Source of the DNA: Candidatus Eiseniibacteriota bacterium | GTDB lineage: Bacteria > Desulfobacterota > Binatia > DP-6 | Direction of reading: 5' to 3' | Length of the DNA: 64,000 nucleotides | NCBI GenBank assembly: GCA_035577985.1 | Contig: DATJZY010000107.1 | Coordinates: 43,475-107,474, forward strand | Shown: positions 16,978-32,150 of the stretch, piece after piece | Position numbering within the stretch: the first letter of the stretch is position 1 | Layout: each line of letters opens with the position of its first letter | Notes under the pieces: generated by a model | Told to the model about the DNA's origin: nothing | The model's database searches: none | What the model saw: only the letters and a program-made list of their open reading frames with translations | Program-made: the position numbers and the translations under genes

Positions 16978-18198
16978 TCAGGCGAGAACGCCTTTGCTCT
17001 CGAGTCCGGCGTATTCGTCGGCGGACATGCCGAGGAGATCGCGCAGGACGCGGGTGGTGTGCTCGCCGAGCTTGGGGGCGGGGATGCGGATGTCGGCGGG
17101 GGTGTCGGGGAAGACGATGGCGTTCATCTCGGCGGGGTGGCGGCCGAGGACGGGATGGTCGACCCAGCGGAACTGGCGGCGATGCGCGAGCTGCGGGTCG
17201 TCGTGGACGTCGCCCAGGTCCTGCACCGGCGCGGCGTCGATACCGGCCTGCTGCAGCCGTTCGGCGAGCGTGCCGGCGTCGTGCGTGCGCGTCCAGCCGT
17301 CGACGTGACACTCGACCTCGCCGATGCGCGTGAGCCGGCCGGCGAGCGTCGCGAGCGACGTGTCGGTCGCCCACGCGGGCTTGCCCATCGCGTCGACGAG
17401 GCGCCGCCAGTCGGCGTCGTCGTGGACGGCGATCGCGATCCATCGCTCGCGGCCGTCGGCGGCGTCCTTGCAGCGGAAGACGCCGTGCGGCACCTCGTGA
17501 CGCGAGCGGTTGCCGACGCGCCCGAGCGCCTCGCCGTTCGCCGCGAACGTCACGAGGGCTTCGGAGAGGCAGATGATGCCGCCCTCGACCTGAGCCAGAT
17601 CGATGTGCTGGCCCTCGCCCGTGCGTGCGCGATGCAGGAGCGCCGACGCGAGCAGCAGGGCCGCGAAGCGCGGCGAGAGCGAGTCCGTGATCGTGCCGTA
17701 CGGGCCCAGGGGCTCGCGATCGGGCCAGCCCGTCAGGTGGTTGAAGCCCGAGAGCGCCGAGCCCTGGCCGCCGAAGCCGGGGTAGAAGCGATGCGGCCCG
17801 GTCTGGCCGTTGAGGCACGTGCTGATCATGACGAGGTCGGGACGCTCGCGGACCAGGGTCGCGTAGTCGAGGCCCCATTTCTTCATCGCGCCCGGCGCGA
17901 AGTTCTCGGCGACCGCGTCCGCCCGGAGAGCGAGGCGCTTCGCGACCGCGACGCCTTCGGGCATGGACAGGTTCAGCGCCACCGAGAGCTTGTTCACGTT
18001 GAGGACGGCGAAATGCTCGGCGGCGTCGAGCCCGCCCGGCGTGTTCGGCGTCAGCTTCAACGTCCGCAGGAAGTCGGGCCGTGCCTTCGACTCGATGCGG
18101 ATCACGGTCGCGCCGCAGTCGGCGAAGTAGCGCGTGGCGACGGGCCCCGCCGCGCCCGCGCCCATCTCGAGGATCGTCGTGCCGCCGAAGATGTCCAT
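16978..18198 (-). CDS. CoA-transferase family III (CaiB/BaiF) protein
   Basis: The track ORF is 16978..18720. The call starts at MDIFGGTTILEMGAGAAGPVATRYFADCGATVIRIE (rc ATG 18196-18198). The rest of the sequence is CaiB/BaiF-like. Confidence 0.85.
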   Translation of the reverse strand: MDIFGGTTILEMGAGAAGPVATRYFADCGATVIRIESKARPDFLRTLKLTPNTPGGLDAAEHFAVLNVNKLSVALNLSMPEGVAVAKRLALRADAVAENFAPGAMKKWGLDYATLVRERPDLVMISTCLNGQTGPHRFYPGFGGQGSALSGFNHLTGWPDREPLGPYGTITDSLSPRFAALLLASALLHRARTGEGQHIDLAQVEGGIICLSEALVTFAANGEALGRVGNRSRHEVPHGVFRCKDAADGRERWIAIAVHDDADWRRLVDAMGKPAWATDTSLATLAGRLTRIGEVECHVDGWTRTHDAGTLAERLQQAGIDAAPVQDLGDVHDDPQLAHRRQFRWVDHPVLGRHPAEMNAIVFPDTPADIRIPAPKLGEHTTRVLRDLLGMSADEYAGLESKGVLA

Positions 18199-19442
18199 CA
18201 GCACACCCCCGCCGCGCGCAGCTCGACCACCATCGCCTCGGTGACGCCGATCTCCGCCAGCACGTCGCGCGTGTGCTCGCCGAGCCGCGGCGCCGGCCGC
18301 CGGATGCCGACCGCCGCGCCGCCCGACGCCGACGTCGTCTTCGCGAACGATCCCGGGTAGCGCAGCCGGCCACGCCCGGGGTTGTCGATCTCGACGAAGA
18401 ACTCGCGCGACGCGAGCTGCTCGGACGCGTCGATCTCGCGCGCCGTGTTCGCCGGTGCGAGCATGAGGTTGCGTTCGACGGCGGCGCGGAACAGCTCGGT
18501 CATGGTCTTCGAGAGGAAGAAGGCGCCGAACTCGGCCGAAAGCGCGTCGACCTCGGCCTGCGTGAGCAGGTTGTGGTTGTAGGTCTTCCAGTCGGTCGCC
18601 TTGAGCGCGGCGGACGCCATGCCGTGCTCGTCCATGAGCTTCACCATCGCGATCAAGCCCGGAACGCGCGCCGGGCCGCCACGCAGCGCGAACGAGACGA
18701 AGCCGTCCTTGCACGGCCATATCTCACGCTGCTCGCTCTTCGGCTGGCGGAAGAACGCTCCCGCGCGGGCGCCGCGGCTGCCGTTCATCTTGAACATGGA
18801 CGCGGTCGCCATGTTCGGCATGATCATGGCCGCCTGCATGGCGACGTCGACGTGCTGGCCGCGTCCCGTCCGCTCGCGCGCCACGAGCGCGAACGTGACC
18901 GCGAGCGCCGCCTCGATGCTGGCGTGATAGTACGCGACCGGCAGCGAGCAGCGCACCGGCGCGCGATCCGGATCGCCGGTGCAGTGCAGGTTGCCGGAGG
19001 TGGCGAGCGTGGTGAGGTCCGAGCCCCGCCAGCCCGCATACGGCCCGCTCTGTCCCCACGGCGTGAGCGAGCACAGCACCAGGCGCGGGTTGCGGGCGTG
19101 TAGCGTGTCCCACCCGAGGCCGCGCGCCGCCATCGTGCCGGGCGCTTCGGTCTCGACGACGACGTCGGCACGCCCGGCGAGCGCGAGGAAGAGGTCACGG
19201 CCGCGCGGCGTCGTCACGTCGAGCGTGATGCCCCGCTTGGAGGTGTTGTAGGCGAGCCAGACGAGCGAGCGTTCGGGATCGTCGGCGTGGCCCCAGAAGG
19301 GACCGCGGCGCCGGACGGGATCGCCCGAGGGCGGCTCGACCTTCACGACGTCGGCGCCGAGATCGCCCAGGAGCTTGCCCGCGAAGTGGCCGGGCTCGCC
19401 GGTGAGATCGAGCACACGGACGCCACTCAGGTTGCCGTTCAT
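18198..19442 (-). CDS. CoA-transferase family III (CaiB/BaiF) protein
   Basis: The 414 aa ORF begins VRVLDLTGEPGHFAGKLLGDLGADVVKVE. Its stop overlaps the start of the downstream CoA-transferase gene, indicating a two-gene operon. Confidence 0.85.
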   Translation of the reverse strand: MNGNLSGVRVLDLTGEPGHFAGKLLGDLGADVVKVEPPSGDPVRRRGPFWGHADDPERSLVWLAYNTSKRGITLDVTTPRGRDLFLALAGRADVVVETEAPGTMAARGLGWDTLHARNPRLVLCSLTPWGQSGPYAGWRGSDLTTLATSGNLHCTGDPDRAPVRCSLPVAYYHASIEAALAVTFALVARERTGRGQHVDVAMQAAMIMPNMATASMFKMNGSRGARAGAFFRQPKSEQREIWPCKDGFVSFALRGGPARVPGLIAMVKLMDEHGMASAALKATDWKTYNHNLLTQAEVDALSAEFGAFFLSKTMTELFRAAVERNLMLAPANTAREIDASEQLASREFFVEIDNPGRGRLRYPGSFAKTTSASGGAAVGIRRPAPRLGEHTRDVLAEIGVTEAMVVELRAAGVC

Positions 19443-19512
19443 CGCGCGCGCTAGCTACCCGCGGCGTCGCCGGGGTGTCAAGGTTCGGTGCCCTGCGATA
19501 CAAGCCCCGTCC

Positions 19513-20439
19513 ATGCGCATCGGCATCGGCATCGGCGAGATCACCGCGGCTCCGGGAACGATCGACAACCTCGTCGCGCAGGCGAAGCAGGCGGAGGCGG
19601 ACGGCTTCGCGAGCGGCTGGCTCGCGAACATCTTCGGCATGGACGCCATCATGGCGGCCGCCGTCTGCGCCCGCGAGACCTCGCGCATGGAGCTCGGCAC
19701 GGCGGTCGTGCCGACGTATCCGCGCCACCCGGTGGCGATGGCGCAGGCCGCGCTCTCGGCGGCCGCCATCTCGCGCGGGCGTTTCAGCCTCGGCATCGGC
19801 CTCTCGCACCAGATCGTCATCGAAGGGATGCTCGGCCTCTCGTTCGCCAAGCCGTACTCGCACATGCGGGAGTACCTCCAGGTGCTGTGTCCGCTCGTAC
19901 GCACCGGGCAGGTGAGTCACAATGGGTCGGAGTACCGCGTCAACGCGAACATGTCGGTCCCGGGGGCGAAGCCGTGCCCGATCCTGGTGGCGGCGCTCGC
20001 GCCCAAGATGCTGGCGCTCGCGGGACGGGAAACCGACGGAACGATCACGTGGATGACCGGCCCCAAGACGATCGCCGAGCACACGGCGCCGCGTATTCGC
20101 GAGGCGGCCGCGGCGGCGAATCGGCCGGAGCCGCGCGTCGTCGTGGGCCTGCCGATCGCGGTCACGAAATCGGTCGAGGCGGCGCGCGCGTCGGCGGCGA
20201 AGACGTTCCAGGTCTATGGCATGCTCCCGTCGTACCGCGCGATGCTGGATCGGGAAGGCCTCGAGGGTCCGTCCGACGTCGCGATCGTCGGCGACGAGAG
20301 CCAGGTGGGGGCGGCAATCGAGCGTCTCGGCGCGGCCGGCGCGACGGATCTCCTGGCCGTCCCGTTCACCGTTCAGGGCGATCCGGAGACCGTTCAGCGC
20401 ACTCGAGCCTTCCTCGCACGCCGCGCACGCGGTATCTGA
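19513..20439 (+). CDS. LLM-class F420-dependent oxidoreductase (luciferase-like)
   Basis: The track ORF is 19375..20439. The call starts at the ATG at 19513 (MRIGIGIGE...). It has the TIM-barrel LLM layout of the F420-dependent subfamily. Confidence 0.8.
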   Translation: MRIGIGIGEITAAPGTIDNLVAQAKQAEADGFASGWLANIFGMDAIMAAAVCARETSRMELGTAVVPTYPRHPVAMAQAALSAAAISRGRFSLGIGLSHQIVIEGMLGLSFAKPYSHMREYLQVLCPLVRTGQVSHNGSEYRVNANMSVPGAKPCPILVAALAPKMLALAGRETDGTITWMTGPKTIAEHTAPRIREAAAAANRPEPRVVVGLPIAVTKSVEAARASAAKTFQVYGMLPSYRAMLDREGLEGPSDVAIVGDESQVGAAIERLGAAGATDLLAVPFTVQGDPETVQRTRAFLARRARGI

Positions 20440-20487
20440 GCACTCCTCGACGGCCGATCAGGCGTCCGCTCGGGCCATAGAGCCCGA

Positions 20488-20517
20488 TTAACGCGACGCG
20501 ACCTTGAGCGATATGTA
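20488..20517 (+). promoter_or_regulatory. Sigma-70-type promoter candidate upstream of the large secreted-protein gene
   Basis: The elements are TTAACG (20488-20493), an 18-nt spacer and TATGTA (20512-20517). The SD ctaGGAGGat precedes the ATG at 20557. Confidence 0.35.
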
Positions 20518-20556
20518 CCCCTTGCGGTAACGGAACCTGTCTAGGAGGATGCCCGA

Positions 20557-23088
20557 ATGCGCCCGCTGACCCGACTCCTGTCGACGCTTGCCCTCCTGGG
20601 TGGCCTGGGGGCTTCCGCATTTGCCGCCGATTTCCCCCTCGCATCGAGCAAGATCTCGCTGAAGGACGGGAAGAGCCCCTCCAGCCGGAAGGTCACCTTC
20701 CAGGCCAAGTACTCGGGTGACCTCGGCAGCATGGACCCGAACTTCGACGGCTCGACGCTGCGCATCTATGGCGGCCCCGGCGAGGGCGACAGCGGGCTCA
20801 TCCGTCTCGGTCCCAACTGGCGCACGCTGCCGAAGGGCAAGGGCCTTCGCTACGAGGACAAGACCCAGTCGGCGGGCGGCATCCGCTCGATCCTTCTGCG
20901 CAAGGGCAAGGGTGGCGGGGGCCGCCTGAAGATCGCCGGCGGCAACGCCGGGTGGGCCTATCAGGTCGCGATGCCGCAGACGGTCGTGACGGTCACGCTG
21001 TCGATCTCGGACGCGAAGCTGTGCGCGCAGTTCTCGAGCGTGAAGACGAGGAAGCAGCGCGTCTCCGGCGCCTCGGAGAAGGCGCTCCCCTCCTGCCCGT
21101 GCGAGAAGTTCGACAGCACCTGGGATGCGATCCAGACCGCGATCTTCGAGCGCCACGGGTGCACGAACGTCACCTGTCACGGCAGCGACGCGGGCGCGGC
21201 GAATTCCGGTGGCCTGAACCTCAGCCCCGACGTGGCGTACGAGAACCTCGTCAACGTGTTCTCCGAGCTCGGCCAGATGGATCGCGTCGAGCCGGGGTCG
21301 CCGACGAACTTCAGCTTCCTGTACCGCAAGCTCGCCGCGAAGACGAAGGGCCTGGCTCCCGTTCCAGGCACGCCGATGCCGTCCGGCCTCCCCGCCCTCA
21401 GCGACGACGAGCTCGAGGCGTTGCGCCTGTGGATCCAGTACAGCGCCCAGAAGGACGGCGTGGTCGCGGGCACCGAAGCGCTCCTCAACTCGTGCCTGCC
21501 GCCGGTGAAGCCGCCGCACCTGGATCCTCCTTCGCCGCCGGTCGCCGGTGAGGGCGTGCAGTATTACGCCCATCCCTGGACCATCAAGCCGCACGGCGAG
21601 GACGAGGGCTGCTATGCGACCTACTACAACGTCGCGGACCAGGTCCCGGACGCGTTCAAGACACCGTGCCCCGACTACTGGGGCGGTCCGACCAAGCCGG
21701 ACGGCATCACTCCGAACTGGTGCTACTTCTACAACAAGAGCGAACTCACCCAGGAACCGAACTCGCACCACTCGATCATCCACATCTACCGCGGTGCGTA
21801 CGGCATCAACGCTCCGGGGCTCGACCACTACTGTGACTCCGGACCCGATCGCAGCAAGGCGTGCAATCCGGCGAATCCCGGCGTTGCGGCGCCCGACGGC
21901 GACGTGTGCGCGGGTGGCGCGTCCTGCGTCGGTGGCTTCAACTTCCACTGCGGCGGCACCAACGACGGAGCGACGTGCGATCCGCGCACGCCCGACGTGT
22001 GCGGCGCCGGCGTGAAGTGCCTCGGCGTCTTCAAGTCGTCGCTCGCGTGTCTCACGTTCGGCCCGCCCGACTTCACCGACATCGCCGGTGCGATCAACGG
22101 CAACGGCGGATCGAACTCGCCAGCGGTCGGTGGCTCGCAGCAGCCGTTCTCGCGCACGACCTTCCCCGCCGGCGTCTTCGGCATCTACCCCGCCGAGGCC
22201 ATCTGGGTGTGGAACTCGCACGCGTTCAACACCACCGACGAGTCCACCTACAACCAGCAGTGGCTGAACGTGTACTTCGCGCCCTCCGAGGACCGCGTGC
22301 ACTACATCCGCGGCATCTTCGATTCGACCGACATCTTCGTGCAGGACGTGCCGCCGTTCGAGGAGCGGGAGTATTGCCGCTCGATCACGTTCCCCGTCGG
22401 CACGCGACTCTTCGAGTTCTCGTCGCACACGCACGCGCGCGGGCGGCTCTTCCGCATCTGGGGTCCCGGCATGCAGCCGCACTGCCGCAGCACGAAGGCG
22501 AACCCCGGCCTGTGCAAGGCCGAGACGACCACACCCATCTTCGTGACCACGCAGTACAACGACCCGACGCAGTTGGAGTTCAACCCGCCGCTCGAGCTCG
22601 ACGACCCGGATCCGACCACCCGGACGTTCAAGTTCTGCTCAGTGTACGACAACGGCTACACCGACCCGAACGACGTGAAGCGGAACTCCGTATCGCCGAT
22701 TCCGCCCACGTTCGGAACGCTGGCGCCCGGCGGCCCGTGCCTGGTTCCGGGCAACGGCGGCTTCTCACGCGACCTCGGCATCGCCTGCGTCAACGAAGCG
22801 AAGCGCGGCCAGCCGTGTGAGGGCGACGCCCCCGGGTTCCAGGCCGACGATCGCAAGTGCGACTCGAGCCCGGGCGCCAACGACGGCATCTGTGACGCGT
22901 GCCCGCTCGCAGGCGGCGTCACCACGCAGGACGAGATGTTCATCCTGCTCGGCAACTGGTACTGCGACCCGAGCGTTCCGGGCAACGGCTGCGACGGCAT
23001 CTGCAGCGGCGGCGCCACGTGGGGCCAGTCGTGCACGAGCGACGCCGACTGCGGCGCCGGCTCGAGCTGCCAGGGCTACATCAACTGA
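20557..23088 (+). CDS. Large secreted cysteine-rich protein with N-terminal planctomycete-cytochrome-c (PSCyt1)-like domain
   Basis: The 843 aa ORF has a signal peptide (MRPLTRLLSTLALLGGLGASAFA). Residues ~190-300 match the PSCyt1 pattern: C..CHG, GGLNL, PG.P..S.L, MP, LSDDELEALRLWIQ. The downstream ~550 aa is rich in Cys, Gly, Pro and Asp, with motifs such as CDPRTPDVCGAGVKC. The local GC content looks lower than in flanking genes, judged by eye. Confidence 0.75.
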   Translation: MRPLTRLLSTLALLGGLGASAFAADFPLASSKISLKDGKSPSSRKVTFQAKYSGDLGSMDPNFDGSTLRIYGGPGEGDSGLIRLGPNWRTLPKGKGLRYEDKTQSAGGIRSILLRKGKGGGGRLKIAGGNAGWAYQVAMPQTVVTVTLSISDAKLCAQFSSVKTRKQRVSGASEKALPSCPCEKFDSTWDAIQTAIFERHGCTNVTCHGSDAGAANSGGLNLSPDVAYENLVNVFSELGQMDRVEPGSPTNFSFLYRKLAAKTKGLAPVPGTPMPSGLPALSDDELEALRLWIQYSAQKDGVVAGTEALLNSCLPPVKPPHLDPPSPPVAGEGVQYYAHPWTIKPHGEDEGCYATYYNVADQVPDAFKTPCPDYWGGPTKPDGITPNWCYFYNKSELTQEPNSHHSIIHIYRGAYGINAPGLDHYCDSGPDRSKACNPANPGVAAPDGDVCAGGASCVGGFNFHCGGTNDGATCDPRTPDVCGAGVKCLGVFKSSLACLTFGPPDFTDIAGAINGNGGSNSPAVGGSQQPFSRTTFPAGVFGIYPAEAIWVWNSHAFNTTDESTYNQQWLNVYFAPSEDRVHYIRGIFDSTDIFVQDVPPFEEREYCRSITFPVGTRLFEFSSHTHARGRLFRIWGPGMQPHCRSTKANPGLCKAETTTPIFVTTQYNDPTQLEFNPPLELDDPDPTTRTFKFCSVYDNGYTDPNDVKRNSVSPIPPTFGTLAPGGPCLVPGNGGFSRDLGIACVNEAKRGQPCEGDAPGFQADDRKCDSSPGANDGICDACPLAGGVTTQDEMFILLGNWYCDPSVPGNGCDGICSGGATWGQSCTSDADCGAGSSCQGYIN

Positions 23089-23095
23089 GATCGCC

Positions 23096-23135
23096 GGGAG
23101 CCCCGCGGCCGCGTGCCGCGGGGCTCCCTTCTTCC
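23096..23135 (+). terminator. Rho-independent terminator after the secreted-protein gene
   Basis: A 13-bp stem (gggagccccgcgg / ccgcggggctccc) with a 7-nt loop (ccgcgtg) is followed by ttcttcc. Confidence 0.6.
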
Positions 23136-23170
23136 TTGACAGGGCCGAATCGTAATTGTACTGACTGGTC
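23136..23170 (+). promoter_or_regulatory. Promoter and partially palindromic operator candidate for the TetR gene
   Basis: TTGACA lies at 23136-23141. Downstream is taattgtactgactggtcaggttaatta, a partially palindromic (taatt...aatta) likely TetR operator, immediately upstream of the ATG at 23180. The -10 element is ambiguous. Confidence 0.35.
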
Positions 23171-23179
23171 AGGTTAATT

Positions 23180-23842
23180 ATGCCTCGCCGCGCCGCCGTT
23201 CGCTCCAGCGCCACTCGCCCGATCGTACGCCGGCGCGAGCGCGGTCGACAGGAGCGCGGCGTGCGCACCGAGGAGGCGATCCTGCAGGCGACGCTGCGGC
23301 TCGTCGCCGCGCGCGGCATCCACGGCATGTCGCTCGACCTCCTCGCCGAGGAGGTCGGCGTCGCGAAGAGCTCGATCCTCTGGCACTTCGGCTCGAAGGA
23401 GGAGCTGCTCCTGCGCGTCGCCGAGCGCGTGCTCGAAGAGGTGGCGCATGGCCCGGCGCGCGAGATCCTGGCGCTGCCGACGCTCGGCGCGCGCGAGGAC
23501 GCGACCTGGCGCTTCTTCGCCGAGACGCTGCGCGAACGGCCCGAGCTGCGCCGCCTGGTCCTGTGGCTCCTCTTCGAATGCGTCGAGGAGCGCCCGGAGC
23601 TGCGGACGCGTCTCCAGCAGCTCTACCGGTCGATCCGCGACATGTTCGAGGCGGGTCTGCGCGAGATCGTTCCCGACGCCGCGCAGCGCCGGCGCCTCGC
23701 CATCATCACGGTCGCGACCTTCGACGGCATCTTCCTGCAGTGGCTCCTCGAGCCCGACGCGATCGACATCGAAGCGCTGCACCGCGAGCTGCGGGCGCTC
23801 AACGAGCGTACCCACCCGGTGCGCCGACGAAAGGACGGCTGA
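23180..23842 (+). CDS. TetR/AcrR family transcriptional regulator
   Basis: The 220 aa ORF has the TetR N-terminal HTH (ILQATLRLVAARGIHGMSLDLLAEEVGVAKSSILWHFGSKEELL). Confidence 0.85.
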   Translation: MPRRAAVRSSATRPIVRRRERGRQERGVRTEEAILQATLRLVAARGIHGMSLDLLAEEVGVAKSSILWHFGSKEELLLRVAERVLEEVAHGPAREILALPTLGAREDATWRFFAETLRERPELRRLVLWLLFECVEERPELRTRLQQLYRSIRDMFEAGLREIVPDAAQRRRLAIITVATFDGIFLQWLLEPDAIDIEALHRELRALNERTHPVRRRKDG

Positions 23843-23843
23843 C

Positions 23844-24494
23844 ATGGACCAGACGAACCAGATGCCGGTGGACCTGACGGCGTTCCGCGAAGTCGTACGC
23901 CATCCGCAGGCCCACGCGGTGATCCTCGGCAACTACCGCATCGGCGAGTACGCCGGCGTCGTCGCGCTCCGCCGCCTCCTGGGCGAGATGCAGCCCGAGG
24001 GCAAGCTGCACGCCGCGATGGAGATCCACTATCGCGACGAGGATCGGCACTCGAAGCTCTTCACGGACTGGATGCAGCGCATCGGCGTCGAGCCGCCGCC
24101 CCTGCCGACCGAGGTCGAAGGCTACTTCGCGAACAGCCCGGAGGAGTTCCAGCAGCAGCGCAAGCTGGTCGAGACGCTGCCGCCCGAGATGCGACGGATC
24201 CTCGTGTTCGCCGGGATCAACGCGATCGAGCGGCTCGCCTACAACCAGTTCGAGAACCACCTCCTCTGCCTCGATCGTCGTGAGGACATCGACGCGCTCA
24301 AGAGCGTCATGGACGAGGAGAAGTTCCACCTCTCCTACGTCGAGCACGAGCTCGATCGCCAGTGCAAAGGCGAGTTCGGCGGCTTCGTGACCCAGGCGCT
24401 CGAGCAGGCGCGCGCACAGTTCGCGATCTTCCAGCAGACGCGGCGCGCGCAGGCGGCGCAGGCCATCGAGCGCGTGCTCGGCGGCGGCGCCTGA
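23844..24494 (+). CDS. Ferritin-like diiron-carboxylate domain protein
   Basis: The start is the ATG at 23844, 1 nt after the TetR stop. The 216 aa protein has two E..H motifs (EIHYRDEDRHSKLF and EEKFHLSYVEHEL) typical of diiron four-helix-bundle proteins. Confidence 0.6.
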   Translation: MDQTNQMPVDLTAFREVVRHPQAHAVILGNYRIGEYAGVVALRRLLGEMQPEGKLHAAMEIHYRDEDRHSKLFTDWMQRIGVEPPPLPTEVEGYFANSPEEFQQQRKLVETLPPEMRRILVFAGINAIERLAYNQFENHLLCLDRREDIDALKSVMDEEKFHLSYVEHELDRQCKGEFGGFVTQALEQARAQFAIFQQTRRAQAAQAIERVLGGGA

Positions 24495-24514
24495 GCACAG
24501 CGAAGGAGGCCACG

Positions 24515-25798: not shown

Positions 25799-25879
25799 GC
25801 CGCCGCGACGGGCGTGCGGCGCGCAACCCGCACGTCCGCCGCGCTTGACCCCCGGCCGCGCACTCGTTAGCTCGGCCCG

Positions 25880-26770
25880 ATGTCTTCCGTTCCGGAGTTC
25901 GGCACCGGGCTACCGGCGATCCAGCAGATTCCGTCGCGCGTCCGCCCCTGGGAGCAGGAGGTCGACGGCGCGAAGATCCTCGACGCCGCACGCGCCGCCG
26001 AAGCCGCCGGCTTCGCCTGGGTGTCGTGCAGCGACCACCCCGCCATCCCCGTCTCGCGCGCCCAGGCGATGGGCCCGACGTGGTACGACGCTGGCAGCAC
26101 GCTCGCGTTCGTCGCCGGCGTCACGACGCGCATCCGCTTGATGCCGCACGTGCTCGTGCTGCCGTATCGCCACCCGCTGGTGATCGCGAAGCAGTACGGC
26201 ACGCTCGACCACCTCTCCGCGGGCCGCGTGATCGTCGGCGTCGGCAGCGGCCACCTGAAGCCCGAGTTCGCGACCCTGCGCGCCGACTACGAGAACCGCG
26301 GCAAGATCACCGACGAGTACCTGAGGGCGCTCGCGGCGGCCTGGGAGCACGACGTCGCGCACTTCGACGGCGAGTTCATCTCGTTTCGCGACATGATGGT
26401 GTGGCCGCGCCCGGTCCAGAAGCCGCGCCCGCCGTTCTGGGTGGGCGGCAACTCGAACGCCGCCGTGAAGCGCGCCGCGCGTCTGGCCGACGGATGGATT
26501 CCGTGGGAGCTCACGGCCGAGGACTTCGCGGCCAAGGCCGCCTACGCGCGCCACCTGCGCCACGACGCCGGCCGATCGGACGCGTTCCAGCTCGTGGCGC
26601 CGCTCGCGGCACCCGCGGGCGTCATTGCCGACAAGGTGCTCGCCGACGTCAACCGTTGGCGCGAGGCCGGCGCGACCGCGTTCCACGTCGGCGTCGGCGC
26701 CGACAGCTGGCCGCAGTACCTCGACCGCCTGGCGTGGTTCGGCCGCTCCGTGATCGCGCGCGTGAGCTGA
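25880..26770 (+). CDS. LLM-class F420-dependent oxidoreductase
   Basis: The 296 aa ORF is typical of the short F420-dependent LLM subfamily, with the motifs GFAWVSCSDH and VGVGSGHLKPEF. Confidence 0.8.
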   Translation: MSSVPEFGTGLPAIQQIPSRVRPWEQEVDGAKILDAARAAEAAGFAWVSCSDHPAIPVSRAQAMGPTWYDAGSTLAFVAGVTTRIRLMPHVLVLPYRHPLVIAKQYGTLDHLSAGRVIVGVGSGHLKPEFATLRADYENRGKITDEYLRALAAAWEHDVAHFDGEFISFRDMMVWPRPVQKPRPPFWVGGNSNAAVKRAARLADGWIPWELTAEDFAAKAAYARHLRHDAGRSDAFQLVAPLAAPAGVIADKVLADVNRWREAGATAFHVGVGADSWPQYLDRLAWFGRSVIARVS

Positions 26771-26779
26771 GGCGTCTGC

Positions 26780-27286
26780 ATGCCGCGCAACGTCGAGATC
26801 AAGGCGCGCCTCGCCGATCTCGCCGCCGCGCGCGCGATCGCCGACCGCGTGGGAGCGCGCTTCACCTGGGCCGACGACCAGGTCGACCGATACTTCGAGC
26901 TGGACGGCGGCCGGCGCGTGAAGCTCCGCACGACCGGCCGCGGCGCCGAGCTGATCCGCTACGATCGACGCGAGGACGCCGGCGTGCGCGTGAGCGCGTA
27001 CGAGGTCTCTCCCGTGCGCGACGCCGAGGGGGAAGCATGCCTCGTGCCGACGACACGTCCGCTCGTGACGGTTCGCAAGCGGCGCGAGCTGTGGCTCCTG
27101 GACAACGTCCGCATCCACCTCGACACGGTCGACGGGCTCGGGACGTTCCTCGAGCTCGAGGCCGTCGTCGACGCGACGCACGACGAGGCGCGCTGCCGCG
27201 CAGCGGTCGATCGGCTGCTCGACGCCTTCGGACTCTCCGAAGCCGCGTGTCTGCGCGCGTCGTACGGCGACCTCCTGCGAGCGTGA
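26780..27286 (+). CDS. CYTH-domain protein (CyaB/class IV adenylyl cyclase / triphosphate tunnel metalloenzyme-like)
   Basis: The 168 aa ORF has the N-terminal signature NVEIKARL and the acidic beta-strand pattern of the CYTH fold. It lies 9 bp downstream of the LLM gene. Confidence 0.7.
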   Translation: MPRNVEIKARLADLAAARAIADRVGARFTWADDQVDRYFELDGGRRVKLRTTGRGAELIRYDRREDAGVRVSAYEVSPVRDAEGEACLVPTTRPLVTVRKRRELWLLDNVRIHLDTVDGLGTFLELEAVVDATHDEARCRAAVDRLLDAFGLSEAACLRASYGDLLRA

Positions 27287-27291
27287 CGGCG

Positions 27292-29346
27292 ATGCCGGGC
27301 GCGCTTGCCGGGCTGCGGGTGGACGAGCGGACGCGAGGGCTCGCCGCGACCTATGCTGGTCACCTGCTGGCGGGCCTCGGTGCGGACGTCTCGCGCGCGG
27401 AGGCGAGCCCGTTCCCGATCCTCGATCGTCGCAAGCGCGTCGCCGCCGCGGCGGGGCCAGTCGACGCCGTCATCGCCGACGAGGGCGCGCAGGCCGACGG
27501 CGCCCCGATCGCCTGCGGCGTGAGCGCCTGGGGCCGCACGGGACCGCGTCGGGCGCTTCCGCCCGACGAAGCGCTCGTGCAGGCGGCGACCGGCGTGCAC
27601 GCGCTCCAGTGGTCGTGGTCGGGGCGGCCGGTGTGGCTCGCGACGCCCGTCGTCTCCTACATGACCGGCATGCTGGCCGCGCTCGGCGTCGCCGCGGCGC
27701 ACTTCGCCCGCCTGCGCGGCGCATCCGGTCAGCGCCTCGACGTGAACGGGCTGCAAGGCTCGCTCGCCTTGAACGGCGGCACCTACGTGACCGGTCCGTC
27801 GCACCAGAGCGCGCTCCTCGTCGGCGGCGATCCGCGCGGCGTCTACCCGAGCTACAGCCTCTACCCGACCGCCGACGGATGGATCTTCCTCGGCGCGCTC
27901 ACGCAGCCGTTCTGGGTGAAGCTGCTCGACTTCCTGGGGCGCACCGACCTCCTCGCCGACGAACGACTGCAGGGCAACCCGATCACGTTCGGCGCGCCGG
28001 AGCTGCGTGCCTTCGTGCGCGGCGAGCTCGAGCCCGTGTTCGCGCAGCGGACGACCGCGGCGTGGGTGGGCGCGCTGCGCGCGGCCGACATCCCGTGCGG
28101 CCAGGTGCAGTCGCGCGAGCAGTACCTGCGCGACCCCGAGGTGCGGGCGGCCGGGCTGGCCGGCGACCCCTTCGAGCCGCCGCCGGCGGCGCGCATCGCC
28201 CCGGGCGCGCCCGCGACCCTTCGCCCCCCGCCGCCGGCGGGGTCGTGTCTCGAAGGCATCCGCGTGCTCGATCTCACGAGCTTCATCGCCGGGCCCGTCT
28301 GCCCGATGCTGCTCGCCGACCTCGGCGCCGACGTCGTGAAGATCGAGTCGCTGGACGGCGATCCCTTTCGCATGACGGCGTACGGCTTCCACGGCTGGAA
28401 CCGCGGGAAGCGCTCCGTCGTGCTCGACCTGAAGCGACCCGAGGGACGCGACGCGCTGCTCGACCTGGCGCGGAGCGCCGACGTCGTGGTCGAGAACTTC
28501 CGGGGGGGCGTCATGGATCGGCTCGGGCTCGGGCGCGACCGGCTGGAAGCGGTGAACCCGGCGCTCGTGCTCGTCTCGGTGACCGGTGCGGAGGGAGCGC
28601 TCGCCACGCTGCCCGGCTTCGATCCCGTCTTCCAGGCGCGCTCGGGCTTCATGACCGCGCAGGGCGGTTCCGACGATCCGGTCTTCCACACGATCGCCTA
28701 CAACGACTATTCGGCCGGGACGCTCGGCGCCTTCGCGGTCGTGGCGGCGCTCGTCGCGCGCGAACGGAGCCACCGCGGCCAGCGCGTCGACGTGAGCCTC
28801 ATGCGGACGGCGCTCGTCGACCAGGCGGCGCACATGACCGGTGGACCGGTCGGCGGGCGGGACTTTCTCGGGCCCGCCGCCGCGCGGCGCCTCTATCCGA
28901 CGGCGACCGGGTGGCTGTGCGTCGCCGCGACGAGCGAGGAGCAGGCGAGGGCGCTCGGATCGCCCGCGGACGTCGCCGTGGCGCTCGCGACGCCTGCGGA
29001 AGGGAGCGAGGGCGACCGCATCGCGGCCTGGTTCGGCGCGGTCTCGCGCACCGACGCTCTCGCTCGTCTGGAGGCCCTCGGTGTTCCGGCGGCGCCCTGT
29101 CTCTCGTTCCCCGAGATGCTGGCCGACGAGCATCTGCGTGCGAACGACGCCTTCGTCACGCTGGACGACCCGGCACTGGGTCCGGTCACCATGGGCGGGC
29201 CGCTCGTCAGCTTCGGGCGGACGCCGATCGGGTACCGGCGCCCCGGTCCCGGGCACGGCGCGCACTCGCGCGAGATCCTGGCCGAGATCGGGTACGACGA
29301 GGCGCGCGTCGCAGGTCTGGTCGCGGCAGGCGTCGTGGGCGTGTGA
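27292..29346 (+). CDS. Double-domain CoA-transferase family III (two CaiB/BaiF-like halves) protein
   Basis: This is the in-frame tail of the spurious ORF 26026..29346, starting at the ATG at 27292 (MPGALAGLRVDE). The ~684 aa protein has a first half ...AWVGALRAADIPCGQVQ and a second half IRVLDLTSFIAGPVCPMLLADLGADVVKIE. Both halves resemble family III CoA-transferases. Confidence 0.8.
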   Translation: MPGALAGLRVDERTRGLAATYAGHLLAGLGADVSRAEASPFPILDRRKRVAAAAGPVDAVIADEGAQADGAPIACGVSAWGRTGPRRALPPDEALVQAATGVHALQWSWSGRPVWLATPVVSYMTGMLAALGVAAAHFARLRGASGQRLDVNGLQGSLALNGGTYVTGPSHQSALLVGGDPRGVYPSYSLYPTADGWIFLGALTQPFWVKLLDFLGRTDLLADERLQGNPITFGAPELRAFVRGELEPVFAQRTTAAWVGALRAADIPCGQVQSREQYLRDPEVRAAGLAGDPFEPPPAARIAPGAPATLRPPPPAGSCLEGIRVLDLTSFIAGPVCPMLLADLGADVVKIESLDGDPFRMTAYGFHGWNRGKRSVVLDLKRPEGRDALLDLARSADVVVENFRGGVMDRLGLGRDRLEAVNPALVLVSVTGAEGALATLPGFDPVFQARSGFMTAQGGSDDPVFHTIAYNDYSAGTLGAFAVVAALVARERSHRGQRVDVSLMRTALVDQAAHMTGGPVGGRDFLGPAAARRLYPTATGWLCVAATSEEQARALGSPADVAVALATPAEGSEGDRIAAWFGAVSRTDALARLEALGVPAAPCLSFPEMLADEHLRANDAFVTLDDPALGPVTMGGPLVSFGRTPIGYRRPGPGHGAHSREILAEIGYDEARVAGLVAAGVVGV

Positions 29347-30164
29347 GGCCGTTCCCGATCGCGCTCGCGGCGACGCTCCACGACCCGACGGCGGCGCTGC
29401 GCGACGACATCGAGCGGGCGCTGCCGCGGCTTCGCGCGCTCTATGCCGGCGTCGCCGTCGCGACGAGCCCGCCGACGTCGAAGCGGATCGTCCGGCAGCT
29501 CGCCGCGGCGGGAGTCCATGCCGGTACGCCGCCGGCGAACACCCGCGGGCCGCTCTACCGGATGGCGATCCGGGGCGCGCTCGAGACCGCCGCGCCGGCC
29601 GTCCACTACGTCGACTTCGATCGCGCGGTGCACTGGCTGCGCGTCGCGCCGCGCGAGCTCGCGGCCGTGCTCCGTCTCTCGCGGCGGCAGGGCCCGCTGC
29701 TCGTCGGCCGCACGGCGACGGCGCACGCCTCGCACCACCGGCCGCTGTGGGCGACCGAGCTGGTCGCCGGCCGGCTCATCGCCGACGAGCTCGGCGTCGC
29801 CGGGCGGCTCGACGTGCTCGTGCCGTCGTTCGTGCTTCCCGCCGGCGCGGCGGGCGAGCTCGCGCGCCGGTCGCGTGCACGCGGCGAGGAGATCTACGGC
29901 GAATGGGCCGCGCTGGTCGCCGCCGCGGTACCGCAGCTGGCATACGTCGAGTGCCGCGGGCTCGACTGGGAGACGCCGGATCGTTTTCGGCGCGCCGTGC
30001 GGCGGGCCGGGCTCGCGGCCTGGCGGCGGCGACAGGAGACGCCGGGCGAGTGGGCGCTCCGTACCGCGATGGCGGAGAAGATCGTCGCCGGCTTCGAGCG
30101 CACGCGCGCCCGCTGGCCGTCGCGCCCGCGTCTTGTCCGCTTCCCGCCGCGCAGCGTACGCTGA
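29343..30164 (+). CDS. Hypothetical protein (operonic with CoA-transferase)
   Basis: The ~273 aa ORF starts with GTG and overlaps the upstream stop (GTGA). It begins ...PFPIALAATLHDP.... The composition is protein-like, but no family was recognised and the start is uncertain. Confidence 0.4.
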   Translation: MRPFPIALAATLHDPTAALRDDIERALPRLRALYAGVAVATSPPTSKRIVRQLAAAGVHAGTPPANTRGPLYRMAIRGALETAAPAVHYVDFDRAVHWLRVAPRELAAVLRLSRRQGPLLVGRTATAHASHHRPLWATELVAGRLIADELGVAGRLDVLVPSFVLPAGAAGELARRSRARGEEIYGEWAALVAAAVPQLAYVECRGLDWETPDRFRRAVRRAGLAAWRRRQETPGEWALRTAMAEKIVAGFERTRARWPSRPRLVRFPPRSVR

Positions 30165-30167
30165 GGC

Positions 30168-30569
30168 ATGGACGACGTCGCCGCGCGCATCCTGCGTGAC
30201 TACCGCCGGATCGCGGTGGTCGGCATCTCTGATCGCCCGGACCGCGACTCCAACCGCGTCGCCGCGTATCTGCAGGGCGCCGGCTACACGGTCATCCCCG
30301 TCAATCCGAACATCGCGCACGTGCTGGGCGGACCGTGCTGGCCGTCGCTCGGCGAGGCGCCCGGACCGATCGAGGTGGTGGACGTCTTCCGGCGCTCGGA
30401 GCTGGTCCCGCCGGTCGTCGACGCCGCGATCCGCGTCGGCGCCCGGGCGGTGTGGATGCAGGACGGTGTCGTGCACGAGGCCGCGGCGGCGCGGGCGCGC
30501 GCCGCCGGTCTCCTCGTGGTGATGGATCGCTGCATGATGCGCGACCACGCGCGCGGGATCGGACGGTGA
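30168..30569 (+). CDS. CoA-binding domain protein (YccU/YneT-like)
   Basis: The 133 aa ORF has the Rossmann-like CoA-binding pattern IAVVGISDRPDRDSNRVAAYLQGAGYTVIPVNP. Confidence 0.8.
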   Translation: MDDVAARILRDYRRIAVVGISDRPDRDSNRVAAYLQGAGYTVIPVNPNIAHVLGGPCWPSLGEAPGPIEVVDVFRRSELVPPVVDAAIRVGARAVWMQDGVVHEAAAARARAAGLLVVMDRCMMRDHARGIGR

Positions 30570-30749
30570 CCGGGCCCGCGCTCGAAACGGCGCGCCTCCG
30601 CCCGAGGCGGCACGGGTGCTGCGCTACGCGTTCGACGAGGCCGGCCTGCGCGGCGCCTCTGCGCCCCACGACTCCGGCCGTTGTTGCCACGCTCACACGC
30701 CTGGGTTACGACCCAGGCCCGCAGCTTCACCCCCCTAGAGGAGATCCCG

Positions 30750-32150
30750 ATGGAATACTCGATGGTGATCGACGGCCGGTCCGTGACGACCGGCCAATGG
30801 GACGACGTGATCAATCCCGCCAAGGGCGAGCCCTTCGCGCAGTGTCCGCGGGGCACGGGCGCCAACGTCGACGAGGCGGTCGCCGCCGCGGCGCGTGCCT
30901 TCAAGACCTGGCGCAAGGACGAGGCGCTGCGCCGCCAGAAGCTGAACGAGTGCGCCGCCGCGATCCAGGGCCACGTGCAGGACATCGCCGCCGTGCTCTC
31001 GCAGGAGCAGGGCAAGCCGATGACCGCCGCCATGGCCGAGGTGTTCGGCGCGTCGATGTGGTTCAGCTACTTCGCGAACCTCGCGACCGAGCCCGAGACG
31101 CTGCAGGACGACGGCGAGAAGACGATCAAGGTCGTCCGGAAGCCCCTCGGCGTCGTGGCGGCGATCACGCCGTGGAACTTCCCGGTGATCCTGCTCGCGT
31201 GGAAGCTCGCCCCGGCCTGGCTCGCGGGCAACACGGTGGTCGCGAAGCCGTCGCCCTACACGCCGCTCACCTCGCTCATGGTGGCCGACATCCTGAAGTC
31301 GGTCGTGCCGGCGGGGGTGCTGAACGTGCTGTCGGGCGGCAACGAGCTCGGCGCGAAGCTCGCCACCCATCCCGACGTGCGCAAGATCTCGTTCACCGGC
31401 AGCGTCGCCACCGGCAAGAAGATCATGGGCTACGCCGTCGAGGACCTGAAGCGCGTGACGCTCGAGCTCGGCGGCAACGACCCGGCGATCGTGCTCGACG
31501 ACGTCGACCCGCAGGCGGTCTCCGAGGGCTTGTTCTGGGGCGCGTTCCAGAACTCCGGCCAGGTGTGCACGGCCGTGAAGCGCCTCTACGTCCACGAGAA
31601 GGTCTACGACCCGATCGTGAAGGGGCTCACGGAGCTCGCCAAGAAGGCGAAGGTCGGGCCCGGCACGGACGCCGACACGCAGCTCGGGCCGATCAACAAC
31701 AAGATGCAGCTCGATCGCGTGATGGGGCTGGTCGAGGACGCGAAGAAGCACGGCGGCAAGATCGAGGCCGGCGGCGTGCGGCTCGAAGGGTCGGGCTACT
31801 TCTATCCGCCCACCATCGTGACCAACGTCGGCCCCGGCGTGCGGCTGGTCGACGAGGAGCAGTTCGGCACCGCGCTGCCGGTCATCAAGTACTCGAAGAT
31901 CGACGACGCCATCGCGCAGGCGAACGCCACCCACTACGGTCTCGGCGGCTCGATCTGGACCGGCAATCGCGAGAAGGGAATGGAGCTCGTTCAGGAGCTC
32001 GAGTGCGGCACCGGGTGGGTGAACCACCACATGGACATCACGCCGTTCGCGCCCTTCGGCGGCTCCAAGTGGAGCGGCCTCGGCTACGAGAACGGCCACT
32101 GGGGCTACGAGGCCTTCACCGAGCTGCAGGTCGTGAACGCGAAGAAGTAG
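30750..32150 (+). CDS. NAD(P)-dependent aldehyde dehydrogenase
   Basis: The track ORF is 30681..32150. The call starts at the ATG at 30750 (MEYSMVIDG), preceded by the SD agaGGAG. The ALDH motifs include TLELGGNDP and a catalytic Cys in the FQNSGQVCTAVKR context. Confidence 0.9.
   Translation: MEYSMVIDGRSVTTGQWDDVINPAKGEPFAQCPRGTGANVDEAVAAAARAFKTWRKDEALRRQKLNECAAAIQGHVQDIAAVLSQEQGKPMTAAMAEVFGASMWFSYFANLATEPETLQDDGEKTIKVVRKPLGVVAAITPWNFPVILLAWKLAPAWLAGNTVVAKPSPYTPLTSLMVADILKSVVPAGVLNVLSGGNELGAKLATHPDVRKISFTGSVATGKKIMGYAVEDLKRVTLELGGNDPAIVLDDVDPQAVSEGLFWGAFQNSGQVCTAVKRLYVHEKVYDPIVKGLTELAKKAKVGPGTDADTQLGPINNKMQLDRVMGLVEDAKKHGGKIEAGGVRLEGSGYFYPPTIVTNVGPGVRLVDEEQFGTALPVIKYSKIDDAIAQANATHYGLGGSIWTGNREKGMELVQELECGTGWVNHHMDITPFAPFGGSKWSGLGYENGHWGYEAFTELQVVNAKK

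Follow-up and report, generated by a model that had tools for sequence, protein, structure and literature searches.

We somewhat favour a reading in which positions 16978-32150 of the 64-kb stretch of DNA analysed (the window) form a conserved but modular gene neighbourhood in the chromosome of an uncultured soil bacterium of Binatia type, comprising at least six transcription units for a loosely linked oxidation route. GC3 frame analysis gave 13 tightly packed genes (A to M), as did public gene calls made independently for this sequence; the genes are listed here with the associated regulatory elements.

16978..18198, minus strand: A, family III CoA-transferase, 406 aa (Pfam CoA_transf_3, 308 bits); predicted Asp-bearing subunit of a BbsEF-like pair
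18198..19442, minus strand: B, family III CoA-transferase, 414 aa (Pfam, 276 bits); predicted Asp-less partner, its stop overlapping the A start by 1 nt
19513..20439, plus strand: C, F420-type luciferase-like (LLM) oxidoreductase, 308 aa (Pfam Bac_luciferase; NCBIfam TIGR03564, 328.9 bits, cutoff 234)
20557..23088, plus strand: D, secreted Cys-rich protein, 843 aa, with a predicted N-terminal beta-sandwich, cytochrome-c-like domain and PHM/DBH-like two-copper core
23096..23128, plus strand: intrinsic-terminator-like hairpin at the end of the D unit (14-bp stem with 13 GC pairs, then TTCTTCCTT)
23136..23179, plus strand: conserved promoter before E (TTGACA 23136-23141, 17-nt spacer, TACTGA 23159-23164)
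23154..23179, plus strand: putative TetR operator, a 26-nt inverted repeat (AATTGTACTGACTGGTCAGGTTAATT) overlapping the promoter and abutting ATG 23180
23180..23842, plus strand: E, TetR-family regulator, 220 aa (Pfam TetR_N and TetR_C_6; public calls start at 23261)
23844..24494, plus strand: F, ferritin-like diiron-carboxylate protein, 216 aa (invariant ligand set, profile matches)
24515..25798, plus strand: G, luciferase-like oxidoreductase, 427 aa (Pfam, 166 bits)
25845..25873, plus strand: promoter-like element upstream of H (TTGACC, 16-17 nt, TAGCTC), ending 6 nt before ATG 25880
25880..26770, plus strand: H, F420-type luciferase-like oxidoreductase, 296 aa (NCBIfam TIGR03619, 239 bits, cutoff 167)
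26780..27286, plus strand: I, small CYTH (triphosphate tunnel) protein, 168 aa (Pfam CYTH, 47 bits, cutoff 23)
27283..29346, plus strand: J, fused double family III CoA-transferase, 684-687 aa (two Pfam stretches)
29343..30164, plus strand: K, GT-A-fold glycosyltransferase-like protein, 273 aa (invariant D91-x-D93), overlapping J by 4 nt
30168..30569, plus strand: L, small CoA-binding protein (CoA_binding_2), 133 aa (Pfam, 143 bits)
30750..32150, plus strand: M, aldehyde dehydrogenase, 466 aa (Pfam Aldedh, 500 bits)

The junctions quoted in the earlier note were each correct by frame analysis and public gene calls: the 1-nt A/B overlap at 18198, the 1-nt gap between E (end 23842) and F (start 23844), H and I (26770/26780), I and J (27286/27292), the J/K overlap at 29343-29346, and K and L (30164/30168). 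An alternative GTG start for J at 27283 gives a 4-nt overlap with I, as in the related locus L003. Pfam also supported the note's three luciferase-like oxidoreductases (C, G and H), TetR regulator, CYTH protein, CoA-binding protein and aldehyde dehydrogenase. Its four CoA-transferase genes, however, are three (A, B and the fused J) with four domains. D, which it left undescribed, and K, left undescribed or mis-assigned, are not CoA-transferases. The stretch contains three uncharacterised protein families, D among them.

The 13 genes were divided into at least six predicted transcription units (B-A, C, D, E-F-G, H-I-J-K-L and M), given the conserved promoters, the terminator and a TetR operator found before E alone. 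The E promoter and operator were conserved in the window and in the related loci L001, L003, L004 and L086, and the core palindrome of the operator occurred only once in the window. The promoter-like element upstream of H was conserved in an alignment of the window, L001 and L003; the gap between G and H is 730 bp in L003. Upstream alignment revealed conserved promoter-like elements before D and M as well, that of M being accompanied by a GAGGAG ribosome-binding site. Within E-F-G and H-I-J-K-L, genes overlap or are separated by no more than 20 nt. Translational coupling (4-nt overlaps at I/J and J/K, 1-nt gap at E/F), together with the conserved operator, suggests that these are real operons. 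E-F-G is probably a TetR-autoregulated operon for a diiron protein and an LLM oxidoreductase. Start sites were also conserved: the N-terminus of E orthologues from residues 1-3, and ATG 19513 of C in five loci.

Genes C to M were syntenic in related Binatia-type MAGs, but in a modular fashion. L003 retained the full C-to-M set and order at 72-88% identity, and L001 carried C-D-E-F-G-H-J-K-M. In L004 and L086, C-D-E-F-G is followed by CYTH, K, FAA-hydrolase and L, with J replaced by the FAA-hydrolase. L002, L091 and the P0194 contig had only H-x-J-K and lacked the C-G block, so the C-D-E-F-G and H-J-K blocks also occur apart. No A/B orthologue was found beside C in L001-L004 or L086; the pair was at this position in this genome only. 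The window's CoA_transf_3 and LLM genes were all confined to 16978-32150 and related genomes repeat the C-to-M order, which together indicate clustering beyond chance. The label "island" given earlier is nevertheless misleading: GC content is uniform, no tRNAs or integrases were found, and the synteny includes the flanking housekeeping genes. We do not regard the region as a mobile element.

This flanking synteny, which extends to DEAD helicase, EamA and DUF4215 genes, means that common descent within a single lineage may explain some of the conservation. Could it account for everything, the stretch being merely a slowly rearranging region with unrelated paralogues of the CoA_transf_3, LLM and ALDH families? 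The flanks are as syntenic as the genes of interest, all relatives found belong to one MAG lineage, modules come and go, and CYTH relatives from other lineages adjoin unrelated genes. We nonetheless consider this explanation unlikely, because the translational coupling and conserved operator imply real operons. Moreover, at protein identities as low as ~50-60% H-J-K and C-D-E-F-G still hold together although the intervening genes have changed, and D-like genes outside the cluster (44-46% identity) still adjoin an LLM gene.

At the other extreme, all 13 genes might cooperate in one dedicated pathway or regulon for a particular organic acid, which would be activated as its CoA thioester and oxidised. 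The dense packing with overlapping junctions, the confinement of the CoA-transferase and LLM genes and the intact order in L003 are consistent with this. However, the promoters or units number at least six, the TetR operator stands at a single site, no relative has A/B, L004 and L086 lack J, L002, L091 and the P0194 contig lack the C-G block, and D is predicted to be extracytoplasmic, making a single pathway quite improbable. For the favoured, loosely linked route as well, the separate promoters, the operator at one site and the modules gained and lost independently speak against the units having to work together. The earlier operon reading held for operons rich in CoA-transfer and redox enzymes, with coupling in E-F-G and H-I-J-K-L and a conserved neighbourhood, but not for a single unit, given the promoters upstream of D, E, H and M, the strong terminator after D, the lone operator and the modular content. 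Also overlooked were the parts that probably depend on oxygen, namely D, which is secreted and resembles a copper monooxygenase, and the diiron protein F with its role.

D matched no Pfam or NCBIfam family, and its profile retrieved no PDB sequence. On the basis of its predicted structure and of residue order and spacing, it resembles a PHM/DBH-like copper monooxygenase with a haem domain: the cytochrome-c-like domain contains C202-x4-C207-H208 and M274-P275, and the candidate ligands of the two-copper core are H404, H405 and H555, and H624, H626 and M794. F belongs to a very small family (35 cluster representatives among 1.84 billion). Its invariant residues (E66xxH69, E129 and E159xxH162) and profile matches to bacterioferritin (2e-9), R2lox, symerythrin and aldehyde decarbonylase bear out the ferritin-like diiron assignment made previously, but every family match in Pfam (COQ7, Ferritin, AurF and Rubrerythrin) was sub-threshold.

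LLM enzymes are very diverse in chemistry. G, the most conserved protein of its block (83-88% identity to orthologues), reached no NCBIfam subfamily cutoff, and no F420 biosynthesis genes were seen in the 64-kb window. M likewise met no NCBIfam equivalog cutoff, the closest being an aminobutyraldehyde dehydrogenase subfamily (430 bits vs 615).

Among the CoA-transferases, A and B were reciprocal best PDB matches to the two BbsEF-type chains. A matched the benzylsuccinate CoA-transferase subunit 9fn0_B best (E = 2.1e-72), and its catalytic Asp aligned with that of 9fn0_B (TITDSL vs NYTDHV). B matched 9fn0_A best (E = 1.5e-60), and both have Tyr at the position of the catalytic Asp of 4ed9 and Frc-type enzymes. 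B-A therefore probably encodes a two-subunit family III enzyme built like benzylsuccinate CoA-transferase, with A catalytic and B Asp-less. In J, the N-terminal half is divergent, shortened and without the Asp, whereas the C-terminal half is canonical, with the Asp in AYNDYSAG; PDB matches were restricted to residues 320-685. Orthologues likewise keep the Asp only in the C-terminal half, the two halves being equally conserved (about 60-74%). J is thus a probable single-chain pseudo-heterodimeric CoA-transferase.

We infer the order of steps in the favoured oxidation route from these enzyme classes. D would hydroxylate a C-H bond outside the cytoplasm, with electrons supplied by its fused c-type cytochrome-like domain, and F would do so inside it. 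C, G and H would oxidise the alcohol or carbonyl via F420 or flavin, M would convert the aldehyde to the acid, and J (or A/B) would form the CoA thioester. In J, the C-terminal Asp would carry the covalent intermediate, while the Asp-less half may serve only as an interlocking partner.

K, I and L would be accessory in this oxidation route, K perhaps glycosylating a small hydroxy-acid. K had no Pfam, NCBIfam or PDB sequence match, and its family consists of 428 "hypothetical" proteins. Its AF2 model (pLDDT 90, pTM 0.89) is nevertheless like a GT-A glycosyltransferase fold with a DxD motif; mannosylglycerate synthase was the top Foldseek match (E = 1.6e-5, TM 0.58), followed by GtrB, ArnC and GpgS. 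I has an invariant N-x-E-x-K instead of ExExK, fell below the TIGR00318 cyaB cutoff (44 vs 58), has 2dc4 and class IV cyclases as PDB relatives, and probably acts as a triphosphatase, not in the pathway itself. That a CYTH gene sits in such an operon, remarked on earlier, was substantiated by its recurrence at the same position in L003, L004, L007, L086 and the P0017 contig. It was, however, missing at L001, L002, L090, L091 and the P0194 contig, and relatives sharing 35-48% identity have unrelated housekeeping genes as neighbours, indicating an accessory rather than a core gene. Among the loci sampled, L was restricted to those also carrying CYTH.

Alternatively, H-I-J-K-L could be biosynthetic, making a glycosylated small organic acid (cf. 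mannosylglycerate, glucosylglycerate) or another acyl-CoA-derived metabolite, with K as the key transferase, CYTH removing a triphosphate by-product and L handling CoA. It is K rather than J that never drops out, being found in every H/J/K-type locus, those without J included; the structures nearest to K glycosylate glycerate, lactate or 3-phosphoglycerate, its DxD is invariant, CYTH directly abuts it in L013 and L086, and CYTH and L co-vary. GT-A is a very broad fold, however, and the structural matches are moderate (TM-scores 0.45-0.58, 12-18% identity); no sugar-nucleotide synthesis or phosphatase gene occupies adjacent positions, and the neighbouring genes (ALDH, FAA-hydrolase, CoA-transferase) suggest catabolism. 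We therefore regard this possibility, too, as rather doubtful. It is very improbable that A/B and J activate fumarate-addition products in an anaerobic hydrocarbon pathway as BbsEF does: the two chains of benzylsuccinate CoA-transferase are the closest matches of A and B, and Binatota have been proposed as alkane degraders (PMC8262859), but the window contains no glycyl-radical synthase or bbs-type beta-oxidation genes, the neighbours are diiron and copper monooxygenase-like proteins of classes that normally use oxygen, fumarate addition is not mentioned in the Binatota paper (PMC8262859), and A/B is not conserved at this position.

Compared with known systems, the adjacent A/B pair, one with Asp and one with Tyr, resembles BbsEF, and J puts the same catalytic/Asp-less arrangement into one chain. 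Unlike BbsEF, none of the three has a bbs or bss context, A/B is not syntenic in relatives, and J is a fusion with ~60 residues deleted from its N-terminal half after the first beta-alpha unit. K shares the Rossmann-like GT-A fold, invariant DxD and downstream conserved His and Asp with mannosylglycerate synthase (GT78), glucosyl-3-phosphoglycerate synthase (GT81) and GtrB/ArnC (GT2), but at its low identity falls in no family and is translationally coupled to a CoA-transferase or CYTH gene, a coupling that we do not know from GT-A enzymes acting on small acids. I has the domain and size of CyaB and small archaeal CYTH proteins (2dc4, 3n0y and 2fjt) and keeps the tunnel residues R46, K48, R50, R63, E65, K100, R102, E125 and E127; it differs in its invariant Asn in place of the first Glu of ExExK, its score under the CyaB equivalog cutoff and an operon context with LLM, CoA-transferase and GT-A genes that is specific to its lineage. 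F has the E/ExxH/E/ExxH set and predicted four-helix core of bacterioferritin, R2-like ligand-binding oxidase, COQ7, AurF and aldehyde decarbonylase, but scores below the threshold of each and is invariably accompanied by a TetR gene and the gene for the 427-aa LLM protein.

To our knowledge, copper monooxygenases of the type that D resembles have so far been known from animals. Published work (PMC8812541) describes a eukaryotic PHM family with a bacterial clan-mate, PNGase F. D has the invariant HH...H and HxH...M in the same order as PHM and DBH and, like them, is predicted to be extracytoplasmic. Its H-to-HxH spacing is 69 residues, against 70 in PHM by the established ligand numbering. In contrast to PHM and DBH, D is bacterial, shares no similarity detectable in Pfam or PDB sequence searches, has long Cys-rich insertions in its two copper domains, and is fused to a CX4CH cytochrome-c-like domain and an N-terminal beta-sandwich rather than relying on ascorbate/cytochrome b561 or DOMON partners.

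Because the GC content is about 71% all along the window (0.68-0.75), genes were called by third-position GC and reading frame. Thirteen genes (A to M) were called in this way in 16978-32150. Public calls on an ENA contig of the same sequence (L088) gave an equal number of genes with equal lengths, save for a later TetR start at 23261. The CYTH and K proteins encoded here share 100% identity with NCBI MAG proteins on a 109,779-bp contig that carry the label 'Candidatus Eisenbacteria bacterium'. The nearest genomes found carry the labels Candidatus Binatia, 'uncultured delta proteobacterium' or 'bacterium'. The gene junctions quoted in the earlier note were all exact, and Pfam and NCBIfam confirmed the three luciferase-like (LLM) oxidoreductases (C, G and H), the TetR regulator (E), the CYTH protein (I), the CoA_binding_2 protein (L) and the aldehyde dehydrogenase (ALDH, M) that it had named. 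The four CoA-transferase genes it had counted are three (A, B and the fused J), which together carry four domains. Its observations were largely correct, and its interpretation, operons that activate organic acids as CoA thioesters and oxidize them, was partly supported. Two genes absent from its description, D (20557-23088, 843 aa) and K (29343-30164, 273 aa), have no match in Pfam (also at E = 10), NCBIfam or PDB sequences, and neither matches the CoA-transferase family PF02515.

Two of the LLM enzymes fall into F420-specific NCBIfam subfamilies, C into TIGR03564 (328.9 against a cutoff of 234.25) and H into TIGR03619 (239.2 against 166.9); G reached no NCBIfam subfamily cutoff. Since no CoA_transf_3 or LLM gene was found elsewhere in the 64-kb window and related genomes share the order of the genes, the clustering is not due to chance. 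A cluster of CoA-transferases and LLM enzymes as first described would be ordinary for a high-GC soil bacterium. What lifts its interest is the presence of three families lacking annotation (D, F and K) together with paired and fused 'half-dead' CoA-transferases. Several further features of the window lie outside the block:

13655-14518, plus strand, ORF of 287 aa with good coding signal and no Pfam domain
16243-16511, nested inverted repeat of ~270 bp between an ABC-F gene and a DUF6894 gene
32300-33422, plus strand, degraded MocR/GabR-type regulator directly after M
37460-38800, minus strand, ORF of 446 aa with good coding signal and no Pfam domain
43449-44954, minus strand, second ALDH gene
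48282-49268, minus strand, ORF of 328 aa with good coding signal and no Pfam domain

The second ALDH gene, 11 kb downstream, adjoins a histidine kinase gene; its product is 37% identical to M and has a weak LuxC-like match. The related locus L001 likewise has a second ALDH near the block. In the degraded regulator, a GntR helix-turn-helix is encoded in one frame (~32390-32575); the frame shifts near 32770, part of the interior of the aminotransferase-like domain is deleted, and the ORF stops where a convergent alpha/beta-hydrolase gene starts. The remnant, probably a pseudogene unless the assembly is in error here, hints that M was once under its own MocR-type control.

We examined the cis-elements that divide the block. 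Upstream of E, TTGACA and TACTGA are separated by a 17-nt spacer. This promoter is overlapped by an inverted repeat of 26 nt (AATTGTACTGACTGGTCAGGTTAATT) that abuts the ATG at 23180, the two together spanning 23136-23179. Promoter and repeat are kept whole in four related loci (L001, L003, L004 and L086). The element probably serves E-F-G as an autoregulated promoter that is nearly leaderless. No evidence for a shared TetR regulon emerged: the core of the putative operator is confined to this one site in the window, and no other locus has the exact core. Comparable elements, likewise conserved, lie before H (where the element stops 6 nt short of the ATG), D and M. A 14-bp GC-rich terminator hairpin lies 3' of D, and 730 bp separate G from H in L003. 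These promoters, the terminator and the G-H gap establish the units B-A, C, D, E-F-G, H-I-J-K-L and M. A single dedicated pathway, as proposed in the earlier note, is one of the main rivals to a looser linkage; genes are coupled within E-F-G and H-I-J-K-L, and the block as a whole is divided among six units.

The promoters of E and H (the latter at 25845-25879) end 6-15 nt before the ATG, with no Shine-Dalgarno sequence for either gene, and D, G and M have GGAGG-type sites. This pattern suggests that leaderless and leadered transcripts are mixed in this organism. An Rfam search for structured RNAs matched nothing in the window, the nested inverted repeat at 16243-16511 included. The ends of this repeat are near-identical 27-nt hairpin units (CCGACCCAAGAC...GTCTTGGGTCGG) at 16243-16269 and 16485-16511, which flank 70-nt arms (16276-16345 and 16412-16481) of 83% complementarity. 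The element could be MITE/REP-like, or a large structured RNA or DNA.

Comparison with related loci revealed a modular synteny:

L003: all genes from C to M, with two others inserted
L001 and L090: C-D-E-F-G-H-J-K-M, without I or L; L090 is a fragmented assembly without clear calls for C, G and H
L086: C-D-D'-E-F-G-H-I-K-FAA-hydrolase-L-M, without J
L004: C-D-E-F-G-hydrolase-I, with K-FAA-hydrolase-L at a distance of a few kb
L002, L091 and the P0194 contig: H-x-J-K adjoining a DEAD helicase gene, without D-G

In L090 and L091, many genes (CoA-transferase, TetR and DEAD helicase among them) are split into 2-3 fragments, as is typical of uncorrected long-read assemblies, and gene absences there are to be read with care. 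A and B were absent from all relatives compared. Mere inherited synteny is a further main rival: the synteny extends to the DEAD helicase and DUF4215 genes that flank the block. Against it, D homologues at 44-46% identity lie outside the block, still beside an LLM gene. A mobile island was rejected, because there are no tRNAs, no composition shift (GC 0.68-0.75 throughout) and no flanking repeats, and the flanks are syntenic in relatives; the block therefore belongs to the chromosomal backbone.

All three CoA-transferases matched PF02515 (CaiB/BaiF) far above its cutoff of 23.3 bits (A, 308; B, 276; J, 450 in two stretches). The catalytic half of a family III enzyme was recognized by the Asp that corresponds to Asp169 of Frc, which forms the covalent intermediate. 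Among solved structures, A is closest to chain B of benzylsuccinate CoA-transferase (9fn0_B, E = 2.1e-72), and the catalytic Asp (TITDSL) aligns between them; B is closest to chain A of the same enzyme (9fn0_A, E = 1.5e-60). At the position that is Asp in other family III enzymes, B and 9fn0_A share a Tyr. Matches of A and B to the opposite chains were far weaker (8e-31 and 2e-22), and the stop codon of B overlaps the start of A by 1 nt. A and B are thus adjacent paralogous subunits of the BbsEF type, one lacking the Asp and each closest to a different BbsEF chain. Given the chain-specific matches, the Asp/Tyr split and the 1-nt overlap, they look like a BbsEF-style heteromer with a single catalytic subunit. 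No bbs or bss genes were found around them within the window.

In J, residues 320-687 alone match solved enzymes (Frc-like 10uh, 3.8e-43) and retain the Asp (AYNDYSAG); residues 1-320 form a divergent, shortened copy with Ser/Gly-Tyr and no Asp. Among J orthologues, the N-terminal half is 58-74% and the C-terminal half 61-71% conserved. The N-terminal half is conserved like the C-terminal half, yet never has the Asp, which argues that it is maintained as a structural partner and that J would be a single-chain pseudo-heterodimer. Each functional unit, A with B and the two halves of J, therefore seems to combine one catalytic and one non-catalytic half. A literature search on fused family III CoA-transferases returned nothing relevant. 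The two-gene and fused forms of a family III CoA-transferase with one catalytic half thus stand side by side, a natural setting in which to ask how an inactive subunit comes to be tolerated in interlocked dimers, and why.

The family of K comprises 428 proteins, all annotated as 'hypothetical', in which H13-D14, D91-x-D93, H128, H131 and further acidic residues are invariant. Its AF2 model (pLDDT 90, pTM 0.89) adopts a GT-A fold and, together with the alignment, places a DxD metal/nucleotide-sugar site in it. The closest structures by Foldseek were mannosylglycerate synthase (E = 1.6e-5, TM 0.58), GtrB, ArnC and glucosyl-3-phosphoglycerate synthase (GpgS), with glycosyltransferase matches at E = 1.6e-5 to 1e-3 and TM up to 0.58. 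K received no CAZy or Pfam family assignment. As F420 enzymes are encoded nearby, a CofC/FbiD-like nucleotidyltransferase of F420 biosynthesis was considered. It is not the leading reading, because glycosyltransferases dominate the Foldseek list, IspD-type nucleotidyltransferases rank 41st or lower and CofC/FbiD are absent from the top 50. A biosynthetic role of H-I-J-K-L, centered on K, is another main rival; K resembles sugar-transferring enzymes in fold.

The CYTH domain of I scored 47.3 against a Pfam cutoff of 23.2, and the CyaB equivalog TIGR00318 scored 44.2, below its cutoff of 57.95. Across 30 homologues, N-x-E-x-K is invariant in place of ExExK. Orthologues of ~60-76% identity (64-76% on long contigs) hold the identical slot, after H or an alpha/beta-hydrolase gene and before J or K (P0017 contig, L003, L004, L007 and L086). 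Several loci with CYTH proteins of ~57-66% identity have no H, J or K neighbor, most of these contigs being short. At 35-48% identity none has such neighbors, the adjacent genes being miaA/dapF, PPIase with NAD synthase, or transporters. A general link of CYTH proteins to LLM enzymes or CoA-transferases was therefore rejected: across 80 metagenomic CYTH loci, it holds only for orthologues of at least ~60% identity, and not for all of these. CYTH is absent in L001, L002, L090 (the fragmented assembly), L091 and the P0194 contig. Every locus with L also has CYTH (the window, L003, L004 and L086), and L007 has CYTH without L. In CYTH-less genomes, another small ORF of 109-121 aa without a Pfam match lies between H and J:

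L002, 9581-9946
P0194 contig, 115 aa
L091, 3208-3537, 109 aa

F matched 35 cluster representatives among 1.84 billion. In the alignment, E66xxH69, E129 and E159xxH162 are invariant and E35 is mostly conserved. Its profile matched bacterioferritin in the PDB (2e-9), as well as Dps-like proteins, R2-like oxidases, symerythrin and aldehyde decarbonylase. Family members have sub-threshold matches to COQ7, Ferritin, DUF455, Rubrerythrin and AurF, and F itself matches no single Pfam family above threshold. With two ExxH motifs, further carboxylates and ferritin-like profile similarity, F is a ferritin-like diiron-carboxylate protein, and the description 'ferritin-like diiron' holds at the superfamily level.

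We infer that the units are loosely connected into a route of oxidation. Hydroxylation of the substrate would fall to D outside the cell and to F inside it, the LLM enzymes would oxidize an alcohol or carbonyl, M would make the acid, and J or A/B would form the CoA thioester; K, CYTH and L may have accessory roles. Such an oxidative route fits the proposal that Binatota are alkane degraders and methylotrophs (PMC8262859), a genome paper that makes no mention of F420, LLM enzymes or CoA-transferases. With three families (D, F and K) lacking annotation, the conserved block is a defined target for Binatia metabolism. Binatia are uncultured and widespread in soils, and the D/F/K block could open part of their metabolism.

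D has a Sec-type signal peptide and is Cys-rich. A 30-sequence alignment of its family revealed invariant C202-x4-C207-H208, M274-P275, H404, H405, H555, H624, H626 and D792-E793-M794. Of these, C202-x4-C207-H208 and M274-P275 would be the haem-binding motif and the distal Met of a putative cytochrome-c-like domain. In its AF2 model (pLDDT 83, pTM 0.80), the first Foldseek match was PHM, with probability 1.0, and the predicted structure contains the PHM/DBH double jelly-roll core. D had no match to Pfam Cu2_monooxygen or Cu2_monoox_C even at E = 10, and its family profile found none among PDB sequences. In the literature searched, PHM/DBH-type copper monooxygenases are given as a eukaryotic family; PHM is described as occurring widely among eukaryotes, and PNGase F, of the same clan, as bacterial (PMC8812541). 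A search for a bacterial PHM-type enzyme returned no paper.

A 42-nt repeat occurs three times inside D (21900-21941, 21993-22034 and 23043-23084) and encodes a recurring Cys-rich motif, D-V/A-C-G-x-G-x-x-C-x-G-x-F/I-N/K. These three motif-encoding copies suggest that the copper-domain insertions of D arose by internal duplication. In L086, D is present as two paralogues in tandem (837 and 809 aa). Upstream of C, in the slot that A/B occupy in the window, relatives have 1-4 large Cys-rich DUF4215-repeat proteins, suggesting that the set of secreted Cys-rich proteins is growing in this lineage:

L003, 98-1618
L004, 1494-2630
L086, 478-6230
L090, 1-357

Our tentative proposal, which we consider somewhat unlikely as a whole, is that D founds a bacterial PHM/DBH-type two-copper family with its own c-type cytochrome donor, hydroxylating an extracytoplasmic C-H substrate whose products would be taken up and processed by the F420/LLM, ALDH and CoA-transferase units. 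Two more uncharacterized enzyme families would lie nearby: that of K, which is GT-A-like and coupled to a CoA-transferase of single-chain pseudo-heterodimeric form, and that of F, the diiron protein linked to TetR. If D is a bacterial relative that is secreted, has all six ligand positions and carries its own cytochrome, this would change where such chemistry is thought to occur and how its electrons are supplied. In PHM, CuH is bound by His107, His108 and His172 and CuM by His242, His244 and Met314, with a 70-residue gap. In the alignment and the AF2 model of D, the candidate ligands H404, H405, H555, H624, H626 and M794 follow the PHM ligand order and lie on beta-strands. The HH...H...HxH...M order is thus the same in both proteins, and the gap between H555 and H624 of D is 69 residues, compared with 70 in PHM.
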